Below are positions 8,115 through 45,399 of a stretch of 64,000 nucleotides of DNA, piece after piece (the first letter of the stretch is position 1; every line of letters begins with the position of its first letter). The DNA is from Escherichia coli (lineage in GTDB: Bacteria; Pseudomonadota; Gammaproteobacteria; Enterobacterales; Enterobacteriaceae), in the NCBI RefSeq assembly GCF_048403405.1, contig NZ_CP183129.1. One strand, written 5' to 3'. The position numbers were made by a program, and so were the translations under genes. The notes beneath the pieces are model-generated. The model did no database searches, was not told the DNA's origin, and saw only the letters and a list, made by a program, of their open reading frames with translations.

Positions 8115-8186
8115 AATATTATGTTAACGGCATGTATATCATTTGGGGTTGCGATGACGACGAACACGCATTTTAGAGGTGAAGAA

Positions 8187-9871
8187 TTGAAGAAGGTTTG
8201 GCTTAACCGTTATCCCGCGGACGTTCCGACGGAGATCAACCCTGACCGTTATCAATCTCTGGTAGATATGTTTGAGCAGTCGGTCGCGCGCTATGCCGAT
8301 CAACCCGCGTTTGTGAATATGGGGGAGGTGATGACCTTCCGCAAACTGGAAGAACGCAGTCGCGCGTTTGCCGCTTATTTGCAACAAGGGTTGGGACTGA
8401 AGAAAGGCGATCGCGTTGCGTTGATGATGCCTAATTTATTGCAATATCCGGTGGCGCTGTTTGGCATTTTGCGTGCCGGGATGATCGTTGTAAACGTTAA
8501 CCCGTTGTATACCCCGCGTGAGCTTGAGCATCAGCTTAACGATAGCGGCGCATCGGCGATTGTTATCGTGTCTAACTTTGCCCACACTCTGGAAAAAGTG
8601 GTTGATAAAACCGCCGTTCAGCACGTAATTCTGACCCGTATGGGCGATCAGCTATCTACGGCAAAAGGCACGGTAGTCAATTTCGTTGTTAAATACATCA
8701 AGCGTCTGGTGCCGAAATACCATCTGCCAGATGCCATTTCATTTCGTAGCGCCCTGCACAACGGCTACCGGATGCAGTACGTCAAACCCGAACTGGTGCC
8801 GGAAGATTTAGCTTTCCTGCAATACACCGGCGGTACCACTGGTGTGGCGAAAGGCGCGATGCTGACTCACCGCAATATGCTGGCGAACCTGGAACAGGTT
8901 AACGCGACCTATGGTCCGCTGTTGCATCCGGGCAAAGAGCTGGTGGTGACGGCGCTGCCGCTGTATCACATTTTTGCCCTGACCATTAACTGCCTGCTGT
9001 TTATCGAACTGGGGGGCAGAACCTGCTTATCACTAATCCGCGCGATATTCCTGGGTTGGTAAAAGAGTTAGCGAAATATCCGTTTACCGCTATCACTGGC
9101 GTTAACACCTTGTTCAATGCGTTGCTGAACAATAAAGAGTTCCAGCAGCTGGATTTCTCCAGTCTGCATCTTTCCGCAGGCGGAGGGATGCCTGTTCAGC
9201 AAGTGGTGGCAGAACGTTGGGTGAAACTGACTGGACAGTATCTGCTGGAAGGTTATGGCCTGACCGAGTGTGCGCCGCTGGTCAGCGTTAACCCGTATGA
9301 TATTGATTATCATAGCGGTAGCATCGGTTTGCCGGTGCCATCGACGGAAGCCAAACTGGTGGATGACGACGACAACGAAGTACCACCGGGTCAACCGGGT
9401 GAGCTTTGTGTCAAAGGGCCGCAGGTGATGCTGGGTTACTGGCAGCGTCCGGATGCTACCGATGAAATCATCAAAAATGGCTGGTTACACACCGGCGACA
9501 TCGCGGTGATGGATGAAGAAGGATTCCTGCGTATTGTCGATCGCAAAAAAGACATGATTCTGGTTTCCGGTTTTAACGTCTATCCCAACGAGATTGAAGA
9601 TGTCGTCATGCAGCATCCTGGCGTACAGGAAGTCGCGGCTGTTGGCGTACCTTCCGGCTCCAGTGGTGAAGCGGTGAAAATCTTCGTAGTGAAAAAAGAT
9701 CCATCGCTTACCGAAGAGTCACTGGTGACTTTTTGCCGCCGTCAGCTCACGGGCTACAAAGTACCGAAGTTGGTGGAGTTTCGTGATGAGTTACCGAAAT
9801 CTAACGTCGGAAAAATTTTGCGACGAGAATTACGTGACGAAGCGCGCGGCAAAGTGGACAATAAAGCCTGA
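8187..9871 (+). pseudogene. fadD: long-chain fatty acid-CoA ligase, interrupted by a -1 frameshift in this sequence
   Basis: TTG at 8187 reads [14 protein letters not shown]…FIELGG then hits a stop at 9060; the next frame continues [23 protein letters not shown]… to 9871; one base missing after the G6 run at 9011-9017; the two parts total 561 codons. Confidence 0.85.
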
Positions 9872-13298: not shown

Positions 13299-14909
13299 TC
13301 AGTTGTCGCCTTTGAATACGGTTCCCGCAGGGAGCACTGGCGTTTTTTCCGGGGCTTCAACCGGTGTCTGCGGGAGATAATGTTCAACTTGATGAGCCGG
13401 AATGTCGGCGTAATCCTGTTTCAGCCAGCGAATAAAGCCACCGACTTTCACCAGTAAAATAACGAGGAAGGGCAGGGCTGTAAGTACCACAGTGGTTTTC
13501 ATGGTTTCCAGCGACGCGCCAGTAAATAAGATAGACAGTGGAATCAGGGTGATAACCACGCACCAGAACAGGCGAAGAGCACGGTCAGGGTCGTCACCTT
13601 CCTTAAGATTTCGCGTACTGGTCGCCGCCATGGTGTAGGCCACCGCATCCATATGCGAGGCAAGGAAAATAATCATCACGCCCAGGTATGCGGCGAGGAA
13701 CAATTTACCGGCTGGCAACGACATCAGAACTTGCTGCACAGCTGTCTCGCCGCCCAGTGTTTCCAGCACCTGTGGGACGTTGATTACGCCATTGATAAAC
13801 TGGTGAATGGCATAGCTTTCCATTACGCCGAAGAAGAACCAGCAACCGACGGTGCTGCCGAGGATCAGTCCCCAGATAACTTCTTTAATCTTACGACCGC
13901 GTGAAACGCGTGTGACAAACATTGCTACGCCAGGGGTGTATGAAATCCACCACAGCCAGTAGAAAACGGTCCAGTTGCGGGGAAATGAACCATCGCCAAG
14001 CGGATCGGTGAATAAGCTCATTTGCAGGAAGTTTTGCGTGGTCAGGCCGATGGCATTGATGATGCTGTTGGTAATAAATTCGGTTGGACCGACAATCAGC
14101 ACCAGTAATGGCAGCAGGAACGCGCCCCAGCCAACCATTTTGCTCAGACGTTGCAAACCGTTGTTGATACCAATCCACGAGCTTAGGCAAAAAATGCCGC
14201 CGGAAAGCAGGATCACAAATGCCTGCACGGTGAAGTTATCGGGTAAACCGGTCAGCGCGGAAAGCCCACGAGTAAAGGTTGCTGCGGTAACAACAAGGGA
14301 AATGGTCAGCGCACCGACAGTGGCGATCAGGAACATCAAATCGACCAGTTTTCCCCACGGGCCTTGCGGGCGAACGCCGGTAATCGCGGCAATAATGCCG
14401 GAAAGGCTCAGACCTTTGTTTTTCCGCACATGAAAGTGATAAGCCATGATTAATGAGGCCAGCGTATAAGTTGCCCAGGCGCTGATGCCCCAGTGGAAGA
14501 AGGAGTAAGGGACGCTAAATTCGAGTGCCTGTTGTGAACGCGGTGCGATATTTAATCCAGGTGTTTGATAATAATAGGCCCATTCAGCACCCCCCCAATA
14601 AAGCGTAGAAGAACCTAAACCGGCACAAATAAACATAAACAGCCAGGAGAGCGTGCTGTATTCCGGTTTTCCTTCTCCAAGACGAATATTGCCGTATTTA
14701 CTGGTGGCTAAATAAATCACCAGTCCCATTGCCAGCAAAACCAATACCTGTACGGCGGAACCTAACGTACGCGTAACAAAAGTGTATATTGCGTTGGCCG
14801 CGTCGGCCGATTGTTGTGGGAAAAGGCTTAATGCAGCTGCGATGAAAAGAATGGCCACCAGGCTGATGCTTATCAGCGGCACATCTTTTTTCTTAACATT
14901 GCTCATCAT
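13299..14909 (-). CDS. yeaV: BCCT-family transporter (carnitine/betaine type)
   Basis: 536-aa ORF with 12 predicted TM segments, aligns along its length with CaiT-like transporters; exact start codon uncertain. Confidence 0.8.
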
Positions 14910-24625: not shown

Positions 24626-25976
24626 TCATGAACGGCTGTTTTTGTTCTGCTTATTGACATATAAACGCTCATCGGAAGCTTTATACGCATCATGTAACGT
24701 ATCGTTTTCTTTCATCGCGTAAATACCGGAAGAGAAGCCGATCTCTTTCTGCGGCGCGATATGTTGCAGACGTTTTTCGATACGTTCAGGCAGTTGTGCT
24801 GCAATTTGCGGCGTCGAATCGACTAGAATGATGCAGAATTCATCGCCACCGAGTCGGATGGCATAATCACTTTTACGAATCGACTGTTTAATCGCCTGAG
24901 CTAATAACGTAATCGCTAAATCCCCCTCCTGATGACCGAGGGTGTCATTTATTTGCTTTAACTTGTCCATGTCAATTGCAATAAACATCACCGAAGAACC
25001 GGATTGCACCAGTTTTTGCAACCGCTGCTCCAGTTCAGGGGTTAAAATTTTGCGATTATACAGTCCTGTCATCGCATCACTAATATTTTCTCGCGACACA
25101 TTTTGGTATAAACGGAAGTGCATCCGCACCATATTCAGCAAAATTAACGCCGTCAAAATCCAGAACAGAACGCTTTTCCACGAAGACGTGATAAAGTAAA
25201 GAATATCAATGGATAACGAGACACGAATGCCGCCCGGTAAGTCATGGACGTAACTGACATACTGGAACAGATTATCTTCGCTCTGGTTGATGATAATGTC
25301 GCGCCCCGAATCGGTATCGGTTAGCGTGACATTGAGAAAACGCCAGAGGAGAGGGCGGTCATGAGTGTAAAAGATATTCCGCAGATTGTTTTTGTTAATA
25401 TCCAGCAGCACAATCCCTTTTAGCTGCCCTGCGACATATACCGGCGTCAGCAAACTCATCACGTTCTGTTTAGTACGCTGATCCTGGTAAATGCTCGATA
25501 AAACGGTACGCCCGGTAAATACCTTTTCAATATCTTTGCGATCGATGCCAATACTTCCTGACTGCAGGAAAGACCAGTTATTCATCGCAAAGTACTCAAC
25601 ATTAACCGGCTCATAAAAATAGACATAGCGGTCATTGAGATCGAGATAATAGTGAAATTTCTCGTCGGCCATCCCAAGACCTGAACCGTAATCATCCTGG
25701 TGGCGGTTGCCTTCCACTGCCTGATCAAAAGCGGGTAATAGTGCTGCAGCTTCCACAATTGTGTCGCAGTCAGTGGATGCGGTTTGTAGTGTGCCGCGTA
25801 AGCCAGGGTATTTATGGGCAGTCAGGTTTAAGCCATGGGTATTATTTGCAGACTCAAAAGCCTCGCAGATGGTGCGCCGCTGTTCTGGCGACAAGTTCAA
25901 AAATAAGGAAGGAAGATGTCAGCACAATGACACTTGCGGCGATAAAATGCCGGAGCATTCTATGGTGCAATTTCAT
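24626..25976 (-). pseudogene. dgcJ: diguanylate cyclase DgcJ, N-terminal segment out of frame with the body
   Basis: ATG at 25976 encodes the TM N-terminus MKLHHRMLRHFIAASVIVLTSSFLIFELV…, which stops at 25854; the 424-aa body (…RxxD I-site RKSD, GGDEF RLGGDEFCIIL) is in the +1 frame from 25900. Confidence 0.75.
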
Positions 25977-36533: not shown

Positions 36534-36612
36534 CCTGTAACAGATCCAGCCATTTTCTGCGTAATTGTGATCTGAGTTGTAAAACGCAGATCATTATCTG
36601 TGTTTTACAGAT
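36534..36612. promoter_or_regulatory. array of ATCTG/CAGAT inverted half-sites upstream of ydjL (candidate operator)
   Basis: CAGATC at 36541, GATCTG-N12-CAGATC at 36570-36593, CAGAT-N4-ATCTG at 36587-36600, ATCTG-N7-CAGAT at 36596-36612; ends about 75 bp before the ydjL start. Confidence 0.4.
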
Positions 36613-36687: not shown

Positions 36688-37764
36688 ATGAAAGCACTGG
36701 CTCGGTTTGGCAAAGCCTTTGGCGGCTACAAGATGATCGATGTCCCACAACCCATTTGTGGCCCGGAAGATGTAGTGATTGAAATTAAAGCCGCGGCAAT
36801 CTGCGGCGCAGACATGAAGCACTACAATGTCGATAGCGGTTCTGATGAGTTTAACTCTATCCGCGGCCATGAGTTCGCAGGTTGTATTGCGCAGGTTGGT
36901 GAAAAAGTCAAAGACTGGAAAGTGGGGCAACGCGTCGTGTCGGATAACAGCGGTCACGTCTGCGGCGTTTGTCCGGCCTGTGAACAAGGTGATTTTCTGT
37001 GTTGTACAGAAAAAGTAAACCTTGGTCTGGATAACAATACCTGGGGCGGTGGTTTTTCCAAATATTGTCTGGTTCCTGGTGAAATTCTCAAAATTCATCG
37101 TCATGCATTGTGGGAAATCCCTGATGGTGTTGATTATGAGGACGCAGCCATACTTGACCCTATCTGTAATGCCTATAAATCCATCGCGCAGCAATCGAAA
37201 TTCCTCCCTGGTCAGGATGTGGTCGTCATCGGCACTGGCCCACTCGGGCTGTTCTCCGTACAAATGGCGCGGATTATGGGGGCGGTAAATATCGTCGTCG
37301 TTGGTCTACAAGAAGATGTGGCGGTCCGCTTCCCGGTTGCAAAAGAACTGGGTGCGACGGCAGTAGTAAATGGTTCTACCGAAGATGTGGTGGCGCGCTG
37401 CCAGCAAATTTGTGGCAAAGACAATCTGGGACTGGTGATTGAATGCTCCGGTGCCAATATCGCACTGAAACAAGCCATCGAAATGCTCCGTCCGAACGGG
37501 GAAGTGGTACGCGTTGGAATGGGCTTCAAACCTCTTGATTTCTCGATTAATGACATTACCGCCTGGAACAAAAGCATCATTGGGCATATGGCCTATGACT
37601 CCACCTCATGGCGTAACGCTCTCCGGCTATTAGCCAGCGGCGCTATCAAAGTCAAACCGATGATCACGCATCGTATCGGCCTGTCGCAATGGCGCGAAGG
37701 GTTTGATGCGATGGTCGATAAAACCGCAATCAAAGTGATCATGACTTACGACTTTGATGAATAA
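36688..37764 (+). CDS. ydjL: zinc-dependent alcohol/polyol dehydrogenase (MDR family)
   Basis: 358-aa ORF; zinc ligands GHEFAGCIAQVG and structural-zinc cysteines CGVCPACEQGDFLCC. Confidence 0.9.
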   Translation: MKALARFGKAFGGYKMIDVPQPICGPEDVVIEIKAAAICGADMKHYNVDSGSDEFNSIRGHEFAGCIAQVGEKVKDWKVGQRVVSDNSGHVCGVCPACEQGDFLCCTEKVNLGLDNNTWGGGFSKYCLVPGEILKIHRHALWEIPDGVDYEDAAILDPICNAYKSIAQQSKFLPGQDVVVIGTGPLGLFSVQMARIMGAVNIVVVGLQEDVAVRFPVAKELGATAVVNGSTEDVVARCQQICGKDNLGLVIECSGANIALKQAIEMLRPNGEVVRVGMGFKPLDFSINDITAWNKSIIGHMAYDSTSWRNALRLLASGAIKVKPMITHRIGLSQWREGFDAMVDKTAIKVIMTYDFDE

Positions 37765-37790
37765 CTACTCTCCTGAAGGAACGTTATCGC

Positions 37791-39170
37791 ATGGAACAGA
37801 TAACAAAACCGCATTGTGGTGCACGGCTGGATCGCTTACCGGATTGCCGCTGGCATTCGTCAATGTTTGCCATCGTCTCGTTTGGCTTGCTTGTCTGCTG
37901 GAGTAATGCCGTTGGTGGCTTGATCCTCGCGCAGCTGAAAGAGTTGGGCTGGACAGATAATTCCACCACTGCCACATTCTCAGCAATCACGACCGCCGGA
38001 ATGTTTCTCGGTGCGCTGGTTGGCGGCATCATCGGTGACAAAACCGGTCGCAGAAATGCGTTCATCCTCTATGAGGCCATTCATATTGCCTCGATGGTGG
38101 TCGGTGCTTTTTCACCGAATATGGATTTCCTTATTGCCTGCCGTTTTGTGATGGGCGTTGGGCTGGGAGCTTTACTGGTGACGCTGTTTGCTGGTTTCAC
38201 CGAATATATGCCCGGTAGAAATCGCGGAACGTGGTCCAGTCGGGTTTCTTTTATTGGCAACTGGTCATATCCGCTCTGTTCATTGATTGCGATGGGACTC
38301 ACGCCGCTGATTAGTGCAGAGTGGAACTGGCGAGTACAACTGCTTATCCCTGCAATATTGTCGCTTATCGCTACGGCGCTGGCCTGGCGCTACTTTCCTG
38401 AATCCCCGCGCTGGCTGGAATCGCGCGGACGGTATCAGGAAGCCGAGAAAGTCATGCGGAGTATAGAAGAAGGCGTCATACGCCAGACGGGAAAACCTTT
38501 GCCGCCCGTGGTTATTGCTGATGACGGTAAAGCGCCACAAGCGGTGCCGTATTCAGCCTTAATGACAGGAGTATTACTGAAACGCGTGATATTAGGCTCT
38601 TGTGTGCTGATTGCCATGAACGTTGTGCAGTACACACTAATTAACTGGTTGCCAACAATATTCATGACCCAGGGGATTAATTTAAAAGACTCGATTGTTT
38701 TAAATACCATGAGTATGTTTGGCGCGCCATTTGGTATTTTTATTGCTATGCTGGTGATGGATAAAATTCCGCGTAAAACAATGGGTGTGGGGCTATTAAT
38801 CCTGATTGCGGTGCTCGGATATATCTATTCACTGCAAACCAGTATGTTGCTCATAACGTTGATTGGTTTCTTCCTGATTACTTTCGTCTATATGTACGTT
38901 TGCTATGCCTCGGCAGTGTATGTCCCTGAGATCTGGCCGACAGAGGCCAAATTACGTGGCTCCGGTCTGGCGAATGCAGTAGGGCGAATCAGTGGTATTG
39001 CCGCACCTTATGCCGTTGCAGTGCTGCTCAGTAGTTATGGCGTAACGGGAGTCTTTATTCTTCTGGGGGCGGTTTCAATTATTGTCGCAATTGCTATCGC
39101 CACCATTGGAATTGAAACCAAAGGTGTCTCCGTTGAAAGTTTAAGTATTGATGCAGTAGTCAATAAATAA
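37791..39170 (+). CDS. ydjK: MFS sugar-acid type transporter
   Basis: 459-aa ORF with 12 TM helices. Confidence 0.9.
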   Translation: MEQITKPHCGARLDRLPDCRWHSSMFAIVSFGLLVCWSNAVGGLILAQLKELGWTDNSTTATFSAITTAGMFLGALVGGIIGDKTGRRNAFILYEAIHIASMVVGAFSPNMDFLIACRFVMGVGLGALLVTLFAGFTEYMPGRNRGTWSSRVSFIGNWSYPLCSLIAMGLTPLISAEWNWRVQLLIPAILSLIATALAWRYFPESPRWLESRGRYQEAEKVMRSIEEGVIRQTGKPLPPVVIADDGKAPQAVPYSALMTGVLLKRVILGSCVLIAMNVVQYTLINWLPTIFMTQGINLKDSIVLNTMSMFGAPFGIFIAMLVMDKIPRKTMGVGLLILIAVLGYIYSLQTSMLLITLIGFFLITFVYMYVCYASAVYVPEIWPTEAKLRGSGLANAVGRISGIAAPYAVAVLLSSYGVTGVFILLGAVSIIVAIAIATIGIETKGVSVESLSIDAVVNK

Positions 39171-39186
39171 TACTGGTGGATTCAAA

Positions 39187-40230
39187 ATGAAAAATTCAAA
39201 AGCAATATTGCAGGTGCCGGGCACAATGAAAATTATTTCAGCAGAAATACCTGTGCCTAAAGAAGATGAAGTTTTGATTAAAGTGGAATATGTCGGTATT
39301 TGTGGTTCAGATGTACATGGTTTTGAATCAGGCCCGTTTATTCCGCCTAAAGACCCAAATCAAGAAATTGGCTTGGGTCATGAATGCGCCGGGACGGTTG
39401 TGGCTGTGGGAAGCCGTGTGCGCAAATTTAAAGCGGGGGATCGGGTAAATATCGAACCTGGCGTTCCTTGCGGTCACTGTCGTTACTGTCTGGAAGGCAA
39501 ATATAACATCTGCCCGGACGTTGATTTTATGGCGACACAACCTAACTACCGCGGCGCATTAACGCACTATCTGTGTCATCCGGAGAGCTTTACTTACAAA
39601 CTGCCCGACAATATGGACATGATGGAAGGGGCGCTGGTGGAGCCTGCTGCAGTCGGGATGCATGCCGCGATGCTGGCAGATGTTAAACCGGGTAAGAAGA
39701 TAATTATTCTGGGAGCGGGTTGTATTGGTTTGATGACGTTGCAAGCGTGCAAATGCCTGGGAGCTACGGATATTGCCGTCGTTGATGTACTGGATAAACG
39801 TCTGACAATGGCGGAACAGCTCGGCGCGACAGTGGTTATTAACGGTGCAAAAGAAGACACTATTGCACGCTGTCAGCAATTTACCGAAGAAATGGGCGCA
39901 GATATTGTTTTCGAAACAGCGGGTTCTGCGGTCACCGTTAAACAGGCACCTTATCTGGTAATGCGCGGCGGTAAAATTATGATTGTTGGTACTGTACCGG
40001 GCGATTCGGCAATCAATTTCCTCAAAATCAATCGCGAAGTCACTATTCAGACAGTATTCCGCTATGCCAATCGTTATCCGGTCACGATTGAAGCTATTTC
40101 CTCAGGGCGATTCGATGTGAAATCGATGGTGACACATATTTACGATTATCAGGATGTACAACAGGCATTTGAAGAGTCGGTTAACAACAAACGCGACATT
40201 ATTAAAGGCGTTATTAAAATTAGCGATTAA
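39187..40230 (+). CDS. ydjJ: zinc-dependent polyol dehydrogenase (MDR family)
   Basis: 347-aa ORF; GHECAGTVVAVG and CGHCRYC zinc motifs; Rossmann GAGCIG. Confidence 0.9.
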   Translation: MKNSKAILQVPGTMKIISAEIPVPKEDEVLIKVEYVGICGSDVHGFESGPFIPPKDPNQEIGLGHECAGTVVAVGSRVRKFKAGDRVNIEPGVPCGHCRYCLEGKYNICPDVDFMATQPNYRGALTHYLCHPESFTYKLPDNMDMMEGALVEPAAVGMHAAMLADVKPGKKIIILGAGCIGLMTLQACKCLGATDIAVVDVLDKRLTMAEQLGATVVINGAKEDTIARCQQFTEEMGADIVFETAGSAVTVKQAPYLVMRGGKIMIVGTVPGDSAINFLKINREVTIQTVFRYANRYPVTIEAISSGRFDVKSMVTHIYDYQDVQQAFEESVNNKRDIIKGVIKISD

Positions 40231-40250
40231 TTAATACGGGAGAACAGAAT

Positions 40251-41087
40251 ATGCTCGCAGATATCAGATATTGGGAAAACGATGCCACAAATAAACATTA
40301 TGCAATTGCCCATTTTAACGTATGGAATGCAGAAATGTTGATGGGCGTTATCGACGCAGCCGAAGAAGCGAAATCACCGGTTATTATTTCTTTTGGTACA
40401 GGTTTTGTCGGGAACACCTCATTTGAAGATTTCTCTCACATGATGGTATCAATGGCAAAAAAAGCAACGGTGCCGGTAATAACTCATTGGGATCATGGTC
40501 GGAGTATGGAAATTATTCATAACGCCTGGACTCATGGTATGAATTCATTAATGCGTGATGCTTCCGCATTTGATTTCGAAGAAAATATTCGTTTAACCAA
40601 AGAGGCTGTTGATTTCTTCCATCCGCTGGGTATTCCGGTAGAGGCAGAATTAGGGCATGTCGGTAATGAAACCGTTTATGAAGAAGCGCTGGCGGGCTAT
40701 CACTATACCGATCCTGACCAGGCGGCTGAATTTGTTGAACGTACGGGCTGTGACTCATTGGCTGTCGCCATCGGCAACCAACATGGGGTTTATACGTCAG
40801 AGCCACAATTGAATTTTGAGGTCGTCAAACGCGTACGCGATGCCGTTTCTGTTCCGCTGGTTTTGCACGGCGCATCGGGGATCAGTGATACCGACATTAA
40901 AACTGCAATTTCGTTGGGTATCGCGAAAATCAACATTCATACGGAGCTCTGTCAGGCCGCAATGGTAGCAGTGAAAGAAAACCAGGATCAGCCTTTCCTG
41001 CATTTAGAACGTGAAGTACGTAAAGCTGTAAAAGAACGGGCATTGGAAAAAATTAAACTGTTCGGTTCTGATGGCAAAGCGGAATAA
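40251..41087 (+). CDS. ydjI: class II (metal-dependent) ketose-bisphosphate aldolase
   Basis: 278-aa ORF, FbaA/KbaY-like (…HWDHGRSM…, …LHGASGISD…). Confidence 0.9.
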   Translation: MLADIRYWENDATNKHYAIAHFNVWNAEMLMGVIDAAEEAKSPVIISFGTGFVGNTSFEDFSHMMVSMAKKATVPVITHWDHGRSMEIIHNAWTHGMNSLMRDASAFDFEENIRLTKEAVDFFHPLGIPVEAELGHVGNETVYEEALAGYHYTDPDQAAEFVERTGCDSLAVAIGNQHGVYTSEPQLNFEVVKRVRDAVSVPLVLHGASGISDTDIKTAISLGIAKINIHTELCQAAMVAVKENQDQPFLHLEREVRKAVKERALEKIKLFGSDGKAE

Positions 41088-41091
41088 TGAT

Positions 41092-42039
41092 ATGGATAAT
41101 CTCGACGTTATTTGTATAGGTGCCGCTATTGTTGATATTCCATTGCAACCGGTCAGTAAAAATATCTTTGATGTGGATTCTTATCCTCTTGAAAGAATCG
41201 CAATGACCACCGGGGGTGATGCAATAAATGAAGCAACAATTATTTCTCGTCTGGGCCATCGCACAGCATTAATGAGTCGTATTGGTAAAGATGCCGCCGG
41301 GCAATTTATTCTCGACCATTGCCGCAAAGAGAATATTGATATTCAAAGCCTGAAGCAGGACGTCAGCATAGATACCTCAATTAACGTTGGACTGGTGACG
41401 GAGGATGGCGAGCGGACGTTTGTCACAAACTGTAACGGCAGTCTGTGGAAATTGAATATTGACGATGTTGATTTTTCGCGGTTTTCTCAGGCGAAATTAT
41501 TATCTCTGGCCAGTATTTTCAACAGTCCTCTATTGGATGGTAAAGCGCTAACAGAAATTTTTACGCAAGCTAAAGCCCGGCAGATGATTATCTGTGCCGA
41601 TATGATCAAACCGCGGTTGAATGAAACGCTGGATGATATTTGCGAAGCATTGAGTTATGTCGATTATCTGTTTCCTAATTATGCCGAGGCAAAATTACTC
41701 ACCGGGAAAGAGACACTGGAGGAAATTGCTGACTGCTTTCTTGCGTGCGGCGTAAAAACGGTGGTGATTAAAACGGGTAAAGACGGCTGCTTTATCAAGC
41801 GTGGTGACATGACGATGAAGGTGCCGGCGGTCGCAGGAATAACCGCCATCGACACCATTGGCGCGGGCGATAACTTTGCTTCAGGTTTTATTGCGGCACT
41901 GTTAGAAGGCAAAAATCTGCGTGAATGCGCACGCTTTGCCAATGCAACGGCGGCTATCTCGGTTCTAAGCGTCGGTGCCTCCACCGGCGTAAAAAACAGA
42001 AAGCTGGTCGAACAATTGCTGGAAGAATACGAAGGATAA
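41092..42039 (+). CDS. ydjH: PfkB-family sugar kinase
   Basis: Start taken at MDNLDVICIGAAIVD… (315 aa); PfkB signature GAGDNFASGF. Confidence 0.88.
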   Translation: MDNLDVICIGAAIVDIPLQPVSKNIFDVDSYPLERIAMTTGGDAINEATIISRLGHRTALMSRIGKDAAGQFILDHCRKENIDIQSLKQDVSIDTSINVGLVTEDGERTFVTNCNGSLWKLNIDDVDFSRFSQAKLLSLASIFNSPLLDGKALTEIFTQAKARQMIICADMIKPRLNETLDDICEALSYVDYLFPNYAEAKLLTGKETLEEIADCFLACGVKTVVIKTGKDGCFIKRGDMTMKVPAVAGITAIDTIGAGDNFASGFIAALLEGKNLRECARFANATAAISVLSVGASTGVKNRKLVEQLLEEYEG

Positions 42040-42048
42040 TGAAGGCAA

Positions 42049-43029
42049 ATGAAAAAGATACCTTTAGGCACAACGGATATTACGCTTTCGCGAATGGGGT
42101 TGGGGACATGGGCCATTGGCGGCGGTCCTGCATGGAATGGCGATCTCGATCGACAAATATGTATTGATACGATTCTTGAAGCCCATCGTTGCGGCATTAA
42201 CCTGATTGATACTGCGCCAGGATATAACTTTGGCAATAGTGAAGTTATCGTCGGTCAGGCGTTAAAAAAACTGCCCCGTGAACAGGTTGTAGTAGAAACC
42301 AAATGCGGCATTGTCTGGGAACGAAAAGGGAGTTTATTCAACAAAGTTGGCGATCGGCAGTTGTATAAAAACCTTTCCCCGGAATCTATCCGCAAAGAGG
42401 TAGAAGCCAGCTTGCAACGTCTGGGTATTGATTACATCGATATCTACATGACGCACTGGCAGTCGGTGCCGCCATTTTTTACGCCGATCGCTGAAACTGT
42501 CGCAGTGCTCAATGAGTTAAAGGACGAAGGGAAAATTCGCGCTATAGGCGCTGCTAACGTCGATGCTGACCATATCCGCGAGTATCTGCAATATGGTGAA
42601 CTGGATATTATTCAGGCGAAATACAGTATCCTCGACCGGGCAATGGAAAGCGAACTGCTGCCGCTATGTCGTGATAATGGCATTGTGGTACAGGTTTATT
42701 CGCCGTTAGAGCAGGGATTGTTGACCGGTACCATCACTCGTGATTACGTTCCGGGCGGCGCTCGGGCAAATAAAGTCTGGTTCCAGCGTGAAAACATGCT
42801 GAAAGTGATTGATATGCTTGAACAGTGGCAGCCACTCTGTGCTCGTTATCAGTGCACAATTCCCACTCTGGCACTGGCGTGGATATTAAAACAGAGTGAT
42901 TTAATCTCCATTCTTAGTGGGGCTACTGCACCGGAACAGGTACGCGAAAATGTCGCGGCATTGAATATCAACTTATCGGATGCAGACGCAACATTGATGA
43001 GGGAAATGGCAGAGGCCCTGGAGCGTTAA
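42049..43029 (+). CDS. ydjG: aldo-keto reductase
   Basis: 326-aa ORF, AKR family. Confidence 0.9.
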   Translation: MKKIPLGTTDITLSRMGLGTWAIGGGPAWNGDLDRQICIDTILEAHRCGINLIDTAPGYNFGNSEVIVGQALKKLPREQVVVETKCGIVWERKGSLFNKVGDRQLYKNLSPESIRKEVEASLQRLGIDYIDIYMTHWQSVPPFFTPIAETVAVLNELKDEGKIRAIGAANVDADHIREYLQYGELDIIQAKYSILDRAMESELLPLCRDNGIVVQVYSPLEQGLLTGTITRDYVPGGARANKVWFQRENMLKVIDMLEQWQPLCARYQCTIPTLALAWILKQSDLISILSGATAPEQVRENVAALNINLSDADATLMREMAEALER

Positions 43030-43054
43030 ATACTCAACACGATTCACCTCTGTT

Positions 43055-43083
43055 TCTGTGAAAACTGTGATGAAAATCTGTGA
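43055..43083 (+). promoter_or_regulatory. three direct CTGTGA repeats upstream of ydjF (candidate autoregulatory operator)
   Basis: CTGTGA at 43056, 43065 and 43078; shares the ATCTGTG core with the ydjL-upstream array. Confidence 0.3.
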
Positions 43084-43165
43084 TTCAAACAGGTTATTTT
43101 GAAAGTAAACATCGGTTATGCGATAATCGCGCTAATGTGATGTAAAAAGATACAGGGGTGTAATC

Positions 43166-43923
43166 GTGGCGGCAAAAGACAGGATTCAGGCAATTAAGCA
43201 AATGGTTGCCAACGATAAAAAGGTGACAGTCTCAAATTTGAGTGGGATTTTTCAGGTAACCGAAGAAACCATTCGCCGCGATCTCGAGAAGCTGGAAGAT
43301 GAAGGCTTTTTGACCAGAACCTATGGTGGTGCTGTTTTAAATACAGCGATGTTGACGGAGAATATCCATTTTTATAAGCGCGCTTCATCGTTTTATGAAG
43401 AGAAGCAGCTTATTGCACGCAAGGCACTACCCTTTATCGACAATAAAACCACTATGGCAGCCGATTCCAGTAGTACCGTTATGGAATTGCTCAAATTGTT
43501 GCAGGACCGTAGTGACCTGACGTTGCTAACTAACTCGGCGGAAGCGATTCATGTTCTGGCTCAATCAGAAATTAAAGTCGTTTCAACGGGGGGGAACTAA
43601 ACAAAAATACACTTTCCCTGCAAGGAAGAATTACTAAAGAGATCATCAGCCGCTACCATGTCGATATCATGGTAATGAGTTGTAAAGGTCTTGATATTAA
43701 CAGCGGCGCGCTGGACTCTAACGAAGCGGAAGCTGAAATCAAAAAGACAATGATCCGTCAGGCGACAGAGGTTGCGTTATTGGTTGATCACTCTAAGTTT
43801 GATCGCAAAGCTTTTGTCCAGTTAGCTGACTTTAGTCATATTAATTACATAATAACTGATAAATCACCGGGTGCAGAGTGGATAGCATTTTGCAAAGACA
43901 ATAATATCCAGCTGGTGTGGTAA
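43166..43923 (+). pseudogene. ydjF: DeoR-family transcriptional regulator, interrupted by a frameshift in this sequence
   Basis: GTG at 43166 encodes the HTH N-terminus and stops after …VVSTGGN at 43600; the next frame continues ELNKNTLSLQGRITKEIISRYHVDIMVMSCKG… to 43923; break lies in the G7 run 43588-43594; the two parts total 252 codons. Confidence 0.85.
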
Positions 43924-44040
43924 TTTAAGCACACGTTGTCAATATTATTTGTTCCTGCGCCTGGAAAATAAAATGATGATAAAGATGCGGCAAGTGAATT
44001 TGCCGCAATTGCTACCTTTTTAGCAAATCCGAGGCACCTA

Positions 44041-45399
44041 ATGGAACAATATGATCAAATTGGCGCAAGACTGGACCGCTTGCCTTTGGCCCGGTTTCAT
44101 TATCGTATATTTGGTATTATAAGCTTTAGTCTGTTATTAACGGGTTTTTTGAGTTATTCAGGCAATGTTGTTTTAGCAAAGCTGGTAAGCAATGGATGGT
44201 CAAATAATTTCCTCAATGCCGCCTTTACCTCGGCATTAATGTTTGGTTATTTCATCGGCTCTCTTACCGGTGGGTTCATCGGTGATTATTTTGGGCGGCG
44301 CAGGGCTTTTCGCATAAATCTTCTCATCGTCGGTATTGCGGCAACAGGGGCCGCTTTTGTCCCTGATATGTACTGGCTCATCTTCTTTCGCTTCCTGATG
44401 GGCACAGGAATGGGGGCGCTGATTATGGTTGGCTATGCTTCGTTTACGGAGTTTATCCCCGCGACGGTGCGTGGAAAATGGTCCGCGCGGCTCTCATTTG
44501 TCGGTAACTGGTCGCCCATGTTGTCTGCGGCGATAGGCGTGGTGGTTATCGCTTTTTTTAGTTGGCGGATAATGTTTCTGCTGGGTGGTATTGTCATACT
44601 GTTAGCCTGGTTTCTCTCAGGTAAATACTTTATTGAGTCGCCTCGATGGTTGGCGGGGAAAGGACAAATCGCAGGTGCAGAAAGCCAACTTCGTGAAGTA
44701 GAGCAGCAAATTGAAAGAGAGAAGAGTGTTCGTTTACCCCCGCTTACTTTGAATCAGAGCAACAGCAAGGCTAACGTAATCAATGGTACTTTCTGGCTGC
44801 TGTTTAAAGGGGAAATGTTACGACGTACATTAGTCGCGATTACTGTTTTAATTGCAATGAATATTTCACTTTATACCATCACCGTATGGATACCGACCAT
44901 ATTTGTTAACTCCGGCATTGATGTCGATAAATCAATATTAATGACTGCTGTTATTATGATTGGCGCTCCGGTAGGAATATTTATTGCGGCATTAATTATT
45001 GATCATTTTCCTCGTCGATTATTTGGCTCCGCCTTACTTATTATTATTGCCGTGTTAGGCTATATCTATTCAATTCAGACTACAGAGTGGGCGATTTTAA
45101 TCTATGGCCTGGTGATGATCTTCTTTTTATACATGTATGTTTGCTTCGCGTCGGCGGTTTATATCCCGGAGCTCTGGCCAACGCATTTACGCTTGCGCGG
45201 TTCGGGTTTCGTTAATGCCGTCGGACGGATCGTCGCGGTCTTCACGCCTTATGGCGTTGCGGCACTATTAACGCATTATGGGTCAATCACGGTGTTTATG
45301 GTGCTTGGCGTGATGTTAGTGCTCTGTGCGCTGGTTCTCTCCATTTTTGGCATCGAAACGCGGAAGGTGTCGCTGGAAGAGATTTCTGAGGTGAATTAA
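44041..45399 (+). CDS. ydjE: MFS transporter
   Basis: 452-aa ORF with 12 TM helices, paralogous to ydjK. Confidence 0.9.
   Translation: MEQYDQIGARLDRLPLARFHYRIFGIISFSLLLTGFLSYSGNVVLAKLVSNGWSNNFLNAAFTSALMFGYFIGSLTGGFIGDYFGRRRAFRINLLIVGIAATGAAFVPDMYWLIFFRFLMGTGMGALIMVGYASFTEFIPATVRGKWSARLSFVGNWSPMLSAAIGVVVIAFFSWRIMFLLGGIVILLAWFLSGKYFIESPRWLAGKGQIAGAESQLREVEQQIEREKSVRLPPLTLNQSNSKANVINGTFWLLFKGEMLRRTLVAITVLIAMNISLYTITVWIPTIFVNSGIDVDKSILMTAVIMIGAPVGIFIAALIIDHFPRRLFGSALLIIIAVLGYIYSIQTTEWAILIYGLVMIFFLYMYVCFASAVYIPELWPTHLRLRGSGFVNAVGRIVAVFTPYGVAALLTHYGSITVFMVLGVMLVLCALVLSIFGIETRKVSLEEISEVN

Follow-up and report, generated by a model that had tools for sequence, protein, structure and literature searches.

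The window, a stretch of 64,000 nucleotides of the E. coli chromosome carrying yoaE...fadD...yeaV...dgcJ...gapA...ydjLKJIHG-ydjF-ydjE...topB...xthA, contains a DeoR-family regulator gene whose reading frame is broken within a run of G residues. The following features lie at this locus.

43588..43594, plus strand: homopolymer of seven G (G7) within ydjF, from the sequence and its comparison with relatives
43166..43600, plus strand: 5' ORF of ydjF with a GTG start, 144 aa, ending ...VVSTGGN*, from ORF translation and profile search
43597..43923, plus strand: 3' part of ydjF in the next frame, LNKNTLSLQGRITKEIISRYHVDIMVMSCKG...QLVW*, beginning LNKNTLSLQGR, from translation
43669..43923, plus strand: free-standing 84-aa ORF matching DeoRC profile positions 96-160, from profile search

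Direct reading of the sequence and its translation confirmed both the G7 run reported in the initial annotation (GGGGGGG at 43588-43594 on the plus strand, flanked by C and A) and the end of the first frame at ...VVSTGGN*, with the TAA stop at 43598-43600. This frame had been described as that of the HTH domain. The HTH_DeoR match (PF08220) is there, at residues 6-60 (E = 8e-18), but the 144-aa product also matches positions 3-71 of the 160 of the DeoRC profile (PF00455) and holds about 43% of the sensor domain. The sensor-domain sequence expected in the downstream frame is likewise present; it resumes at L (LNKNTL...), however, the E codon having been destroyed by the missing G. The first start codon of the 84-aa ORF lies 69 nt beyond the ydjF stop, and DeoRC as written is distributed over two polypeptides and complete on neither. 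As had been proposed, one more G restores a 252-codon gene: computed insertion of a G after 43594 gives a 252-aa DeoR-family protein, the same as in near-identical strains, in which DeoRC is complete (residues 77-233, profile positions 3-160, E = 2e-49). Since only 2 amino acids (G117D and R162S) separate the repaired protein from K-12 YdjF (b1770), and since the gene lies between ydjG and ydjE in the same order as in K-12, the gene is on sequence grounds ydjF, encoding a DeoR/GlpR family transcription regulator orthologous to YdjF. YdjF residues 74-251, including the GGE motif encoded by the tract, align with 7L6L, the solved C-terminal domain of DeoR.

Comparison of the tract length among relatives, which had been suggested as a check, gave G8 in all near-identical genomes. 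TUM14771 and MS 69-1 differ from the window by 4 SNPs and this single G over 38.1 kb, CFSAN061763 differs by 2 SNPs and this ydjF G over 6.9 kb, and all three are annotated with an intact ydjF, WP_000719088.1. The near-identical relatives read ACG GGG GGG GAA (T-G-G-E) at this place; K-12 and most E. coli read ACG GGT GGG GAA and have no long run. Judged from these alignments, the wild-type tract of the lineage is G8. Of 5426 complete E. coli genomes, 4329 gave a match to ydjF; with a single exception the matches are 902 bases long, the query being 901. The initial annotation had also allowed for a conserved two-ORF form; none was found, ydjF being in frame by alignment length in 4328 of the 4329 matching complete genomes and in frame in all annotations viewed. 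An exact k-mer census of the complete E. coli genomes, in which only genomes with identical flanks count as exact and the intact 81-mer serves as the denominator, gave 3363 genomes with the GGT GGG 81-mer, 171 with the G8 81-mer and 1 with the G7 80-mer. The sole genome with the G7 80-mer is NZ_CP146556.1 (B1.H1.39), where PGAP labels the gene 'ydjF, frameshifted'. It matches the window at 100% over 901 bp at ydjF and differs from it by 200 SNPs over 38 kb, a distance that rules it out as the source of the window. A literature search on ydjF found no paper addressing the G tract.

In public assemblies the exact 144-aa G7 product occurs on 34 contigs and the +1 (G9) product on 37, the intact ydjF allele being present on at least 1000 contigs. 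Over 12-20 kb the G7 carriers differ from the window by 3-465 SNPs, which indicates that the allele recurs. Five carriers (L006, L007, L009, L013 and L014) show further indels in homopolymers or have many of their neighbouring genes split, and L006 and L014 arrive at the same 144-aa product through a G lost from a G4 run in the interrupted spelling. Seven G7 or G9 carriers look clean (L005, L008, L010, L012, L015, L016 and L018), and L010 (G7) and L015 (G9) are separated by 1 SNP over 11 kb. Three G9 carriers from one study (L016, L017 and L019; ERR13763xxx) are 0 SNPs apart with 3-7 gap columns, all of them +1 in A/T runs, and the G9 calls in this dataset may be over-calls. L008 and L009 carry G7 on near-identical backgrounds; common descent of the allele with them was considered and rejected because they lack the private SNPs of the window and differ at 42029. 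The haplotype nearest to the window (L003/L004) has G8, and in the collections searched no sequence was found that shares the G7 of the window by descent.

Strain 4621 (window 1-36860) and TUM14771 / MS 69-1 (window 19140-64000) served as references; these near-identical complete genomes together cover the whole window. Against them the window shows about 9 SNPs and a single 140-bp deletion, and no more than two 1-bp indels; strain 4621 differs from it by 5 SNPs and one G, in a fadD run, over 36.9 kb. Each of the 1-bp indels in the 64 kb removes a base from one of the two longest G runs, turning G8 into G7 in ydjF and G7 into G6 in fadD. Runs of six or more G/C make up about 0.1% of the window, yet they hold 3 of the approximately 12 differences. 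The 20 A/T runs of 7-8 nt are without exception the same as in the relatives, and the assembly is therefore not generally noisy. Besides the ydjF tract, three features are concerned.

9011..9016, plus strand: G6 run in fadD, G7 in strain 4621, from alignment to the nearest relative
14590..14596, minus strand: G7 run in yeaV (C7 on the plus strand) with a private T to G change, GTT to GGT, V107G, from alignment
25885-25893, minus strand: 9-bp direct repeat CTGGCGACA at the bounds of a 140-bp deletion in dgcJ, from alignment

The fadD gene (8187-9871) is broken into ORFs at 8121..9062 (313 aa) and 9056..9871 (271 aa). The G7 of strain 4621 reads CTG GGG GGG CAG (L-G-G-Q), and the other top fadD matches also have G7, judged by alignment length. 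The census of complete E. coli genomes gave 136 with the fadD G7 81-mer and 1 with the G6 80-mer, the latter being NZ_CP146564.1 (B1.H1.18). The uninterrupted G7 is a minority spelling in fadD, many lineages having GGT GGG. For ydjF and fadD alike, the long G run is confined to minority lineages and comes from a synonymous GGT to GGG change in a Gly-Gly pair. The public collection contains the 271-aa C-terminal fragment of FadD in 395 blocks, which represent several backgrounds. The N-terminal fragment from the canonical start is absent from the public record, probably because gene callers chose another start. One group with the fadD G6 (L032/L034) looks clonal, and 7 further places are similar. 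Given the clean-looking carriers of G7, G9 or fadD G6 and the apparently clonal fadD G6 group, real variants probably exist too at the ydjF and fadD tracts.

Seven SNPs are private to the window with respect to all relatives compared (14590, 19463, 25664, 35642, 41721, 54816 and 61378). Four of the seven are transversions, and three of them are A:T to C:G, an unusually high share. The change in yeaV extends a G6 run to G7, strains 4621 and B1.H1.39 having G6; the other private differences are six ordinary SNPs and the dgcJ deletion. At least three of the private SNPs change proteins (YeaV V107G, DgcP H327R and YdjH D210E), and an exact look-up of these three in a large public collection returned no record and no clonemate. 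The dgcJ deletion, absent from all relatives compared, takes approximately nt 84-223 of the gene and shifts its frame. Its junction had no one-piece match among the listed complete genomes and is uninformative as a lineage marker.

Both complete genomes that carry a short run, B1.H1.39 (ydjF) and B1.H1.18 (fadD), were submitted by one project on hospital wastewater from Olsztyn, Poland, to which the assemblies GCF_037081995.1 and GCF_037081895.1 belong. The two strains are mutually unrelated, and B1.H1.18 differs from the window by 343 SNPs over 29 kb. Both are intact at their remaining tract, fadD in B1.H1.39 and ydjF in B1.H1.18, where the run is interrupted as GGT GGG, and each uninterrupted G run of seven or more that was examined is one base short. 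Read from these sequences, the distribution of the G7 and G6 singletons tracks the sequencing project and not the lineage. B1.H1.18 further has a TGG to TGA stop in yeaV (W105*, L024), inside the G6 run at which the window has its V107G change. B1.H1.39 has other lesions that are unlinked to homopolymers, namely a +1 C in yebS outside any run and a CAG to TAG change in dgcP, so that its assembly is not simply poly-G-noisy. The pseudogenes of this region are yebS, a DUF1889 gene, dgcP and ydjF in B1.H1.39 (L001, L022) and yobH, fadD and yeaV in B1.H1.18 (L024); this density is higher than in the other complete genomes viewed, which have none over the same region. A literature search found nothing on the B1.H1.x project or its platform.

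In our view the G missing from ydjF is probably an error of homopolymer length, an undercall introduced in sequencing or assembly, and not a feature of the organism's DNA; we infer this technical cause from the kind of differences observed and from how they are distributed among genomes. Platforms and polishers that estimate run length from signal would tend to shorten the longest runs, and a true G8 in ydjF and a true G7 in fadD, the longest G runs of the window, would thereby each drop one base. Each dropped base would create a spurious frameshifted pseudogene, and the true sequence of the strain would be G8, encoding a normal 252-aa YdjF without any derepression. A shared cause is called for because two rare alleles coincide within these 64 kb on a private branch that carries only 7 SNPs, each allele being found in at most about 0.6-0.7% of the complete genomes with the at-risk spelling, where the singletons are possibly errors themselves. 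An undercall is favoured over slippage because error-proneness varies far more among assemblies than the slippage rate does among strains. The caveat of the initial annotation that poly-G tracts are sites of sequencing error has thus become the likelier explanation, on account of the -1 in fadD and of the project-specific distribution of the alleles. Its frameshift reading holds for the identity of ydjF and for the -1 in the G run, but the inactivation that it considered for the case of a real lesion is less likely than a sequencing error.

Residual errors of long-read assemblies are mainly false homopolymer deletions, and they produce an excess of pseudogenes (PMC8011154, PMC12007338). The window resembles the homopolymer errors described for long-read and flow-based sequencing (Homopolish, PMC8011154; Kastor, PMC12007338) in that single bases are deleted from the longest runs, conserved genes are broken, relatives are without the break, more than one case occurs per assembly and the cases cluster by project. 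It differs from them in that only G runs are hit and the 20 A/T runs of 7-8 nt are correct, whereas nanopore noise affects A/T runs at least as often as G/C runs (PMC12007338). An undercall artefact would be expected to act on homopolymers of all bases, and this was not observed, the A/T runs being unaffected. The uninterrupted spelling produced by the synonymous GGT to GGG change is a fragile site, in technical as well as biological terms, in two unrelated genes. A frameshift in poly-G should not be taken as regulatory rewiring before the tract length has been verified, and the case is mainly one of quality control. It is nothing new in kind; PGAP already flags the same G7 allele elsewhere as a frameshifted pseudogene.

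A genuine mutation is the best of the other explanations, although we consider it unlikely. The G8 tract would have lost one G by replication slippage in the recent ancestry of the strain and YdjF would end at residue 144; the G7 to G6 change in fadD would be a second, independent event, possibly reflecting raised slippage or relaxed selection. The lesion itself has the form expected: the indel falls in a mononucleotide run, the orthologues of the disrupted gene are intact, and the protein is truncated inside the domain aligned to 7L6L (residues 74-251). The absence of any A/T-run error from the window speaks for this reading, as does the 140-bp deletion in dgcJ, which shows that at least one real gene-disrupting mutation is present in the strain. 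So does the spread of both kinds of product over at least 4-6 backgrounds, in part on clean contigs, the -1 product being present on 34 contigs and the +1 product on 37. Slippage nevertheless requires that alleles of about 1 in 172 (ydjF) and about 1 in 137 (fadD) came together in one strain, and what the two complete-genome singletons have in common is a sequencing project, not a lineage.

In repair-proficient cells, run indel rates are two or more orders of magnitude lower than in mismatch-repair-defective cells. Mutation-accumulation data for E. coli identify G.C runs of 7-8 bp as the strongest indel hot spots, mismatch-repair-defective lines having acquired, over approximately 250,000 generations, 95 indels in four 8-bp G.C runs and 7 indels in two 7-bp G.C runs (PMC8510543). 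By our arithmetic on these counts, the slippage rates are about 1e-4 (8-bp) and 1.4e-5 (7-bp) per run per generation. The window agrees with such slippage (PMC8510543) in its G8/G7 substrate, in the -1 outcome and in the recurrence on independent backgrounds that is to be expected; in contrast to it, those lines were repair-defective and kept in the laboratory, and the alleles of the window are very rare in high-quality genomes. The private SNP spectrum is also unlike that of repair-defective cells. The group that ran these lines reportedly found in earlier work that mismatch-repair mutators give almost only transitions. A mismatch-repair mutator lineage was accordingly considered and judged unlikely, a spectrum with 4 transversions among 7 private SNPs being ill-suited to it.

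Coding poly-G or poly-C contingency loci are known from Neisseria, Haemophilus, Campylobacter and Helicobacter, and as in these phase-variable loci, a change in length of the ydjF tract switches the reading frame. It is highly improbable that the G8 of the GGG GGG lineages would act as a natural, hypermutable on/off switch for the regulator of a cryptic sugar-acid pathway, with the G7 of the window as a real 'off' state and the fadD G7 as a parallel. We find it harder still to believe that the tract would be a contingency switch at which reversible slippage toggles ydjF and yields subpopulations with a constitutive ydj sugar-acid pathway. Shorter and longer tracts do recur on several backgrounds, and the L010/L015 pair is only 1 SNP apart, but the tract is not conserved. 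The exact GGT GGG spelling occurs in 3363 complete genomes and G8 in only 171, and because most E. coli are without the tract, it is not maintained by selection. Off-lengths are moreover rare (1 G7 against 171 G8 in complete genomes; 34 and 37 against at least 1000 contigs), and much of the tract-length variation accompanies other homopolymer miscalls. Unlike in the phase-variable loci, the ydjF tract is absent from most E. coli and has rare off-lengths, and its reversible switching is hypothetical. E. coli is not known to have coding poly-G switches of such kind. The least credible reading is that the two-ORF form is functional, through programmed frameshifting, transcriptional slippage or halves acting as separate proteins: apart from the two ORFs each matching half of DeoRC nothing speaks for it, whereas no near relative has the form, it is rare overall, and PGAP calls it a pseudogene.

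Were G7 real, the consequences would concern the following features.

36688..43029, plus strand: ydjL-ydjK-ydjJ-ydjI-ydjH-ydjG, all intact, the presumed target of YdjF, from the annotation of relatives
43099..43127, plus strand: promoter-like site in the ydjG-ydjF spacer, a consensus match only
36578..36609, no strand assigned: palindrome TGTAAAACGCAGAT-CATT-ATCTGTGTTTTACA, with 13 of 14 arm positions complementary

A stop at codon 145 would remove over half of the C-terminal sensor/oligomerisation domain, and loss of function would be expected. If YdjF were in addition a repressor, ydjLKJIHG would be constitutive, and the strain would be a natural ydjF-null for asking whether YdjF represses this operon. 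The role of YdjF as repressor of the ydj operon, and hence the derepression suggested in the initial annotation, is an analogy and not a result, the papers located listing YdjF only as an uncharacterised DeoR-family factor (PMC4797297, PMC6055005). The promoter-like site in front of ydjF consists of TTGAAA, a 17-nt spacer and GATAAT with a TG extension (10 of 12 matches). The DeoR family includes activators, and not every member is a repressor. A known natural loss of a DeoR-family repressor beside its sugar operon is that of gatR, which is interrupted by IS1 in E. coli K-12, making the gat operon constitutive. ydjF would resemble gatR as a DeoR/GlpR-family regulator that lies beside a carbohydrate catabolic cluster and carries a spontaneous lesion; the gatR lesion, however, is verified and heritable with a known phenotype, whereas both the lesion and the repressor role of ydjF are putative.

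In the K-12 annotation, YdjH is a kinase and YdjI an aldolase for L-glycero-L-galacto-octuluronate. As far as the source relates the earlier work, the two enzymes act best on this compound and the physiological substrate is not known (PMC9602453 citing Huddleston and Raushel 2019). Approximately 1100 of the 5426 complete E. coli genomes have no ydjF match, the ydj cluster (36688-45399) being variably present, and one paper reports that its prevalence differs by phylogroup (PMC9602453). The palindrome at 36578-36609, which lies about 80 bp upstream of ydjL and shares bases with a -35-like TTTACA, may from its sequence and position be a candidate operator for the regulator of the cluster. A CRP-like TGTGA half-site was observed just upstream of the palindrome, at approximately 36568.
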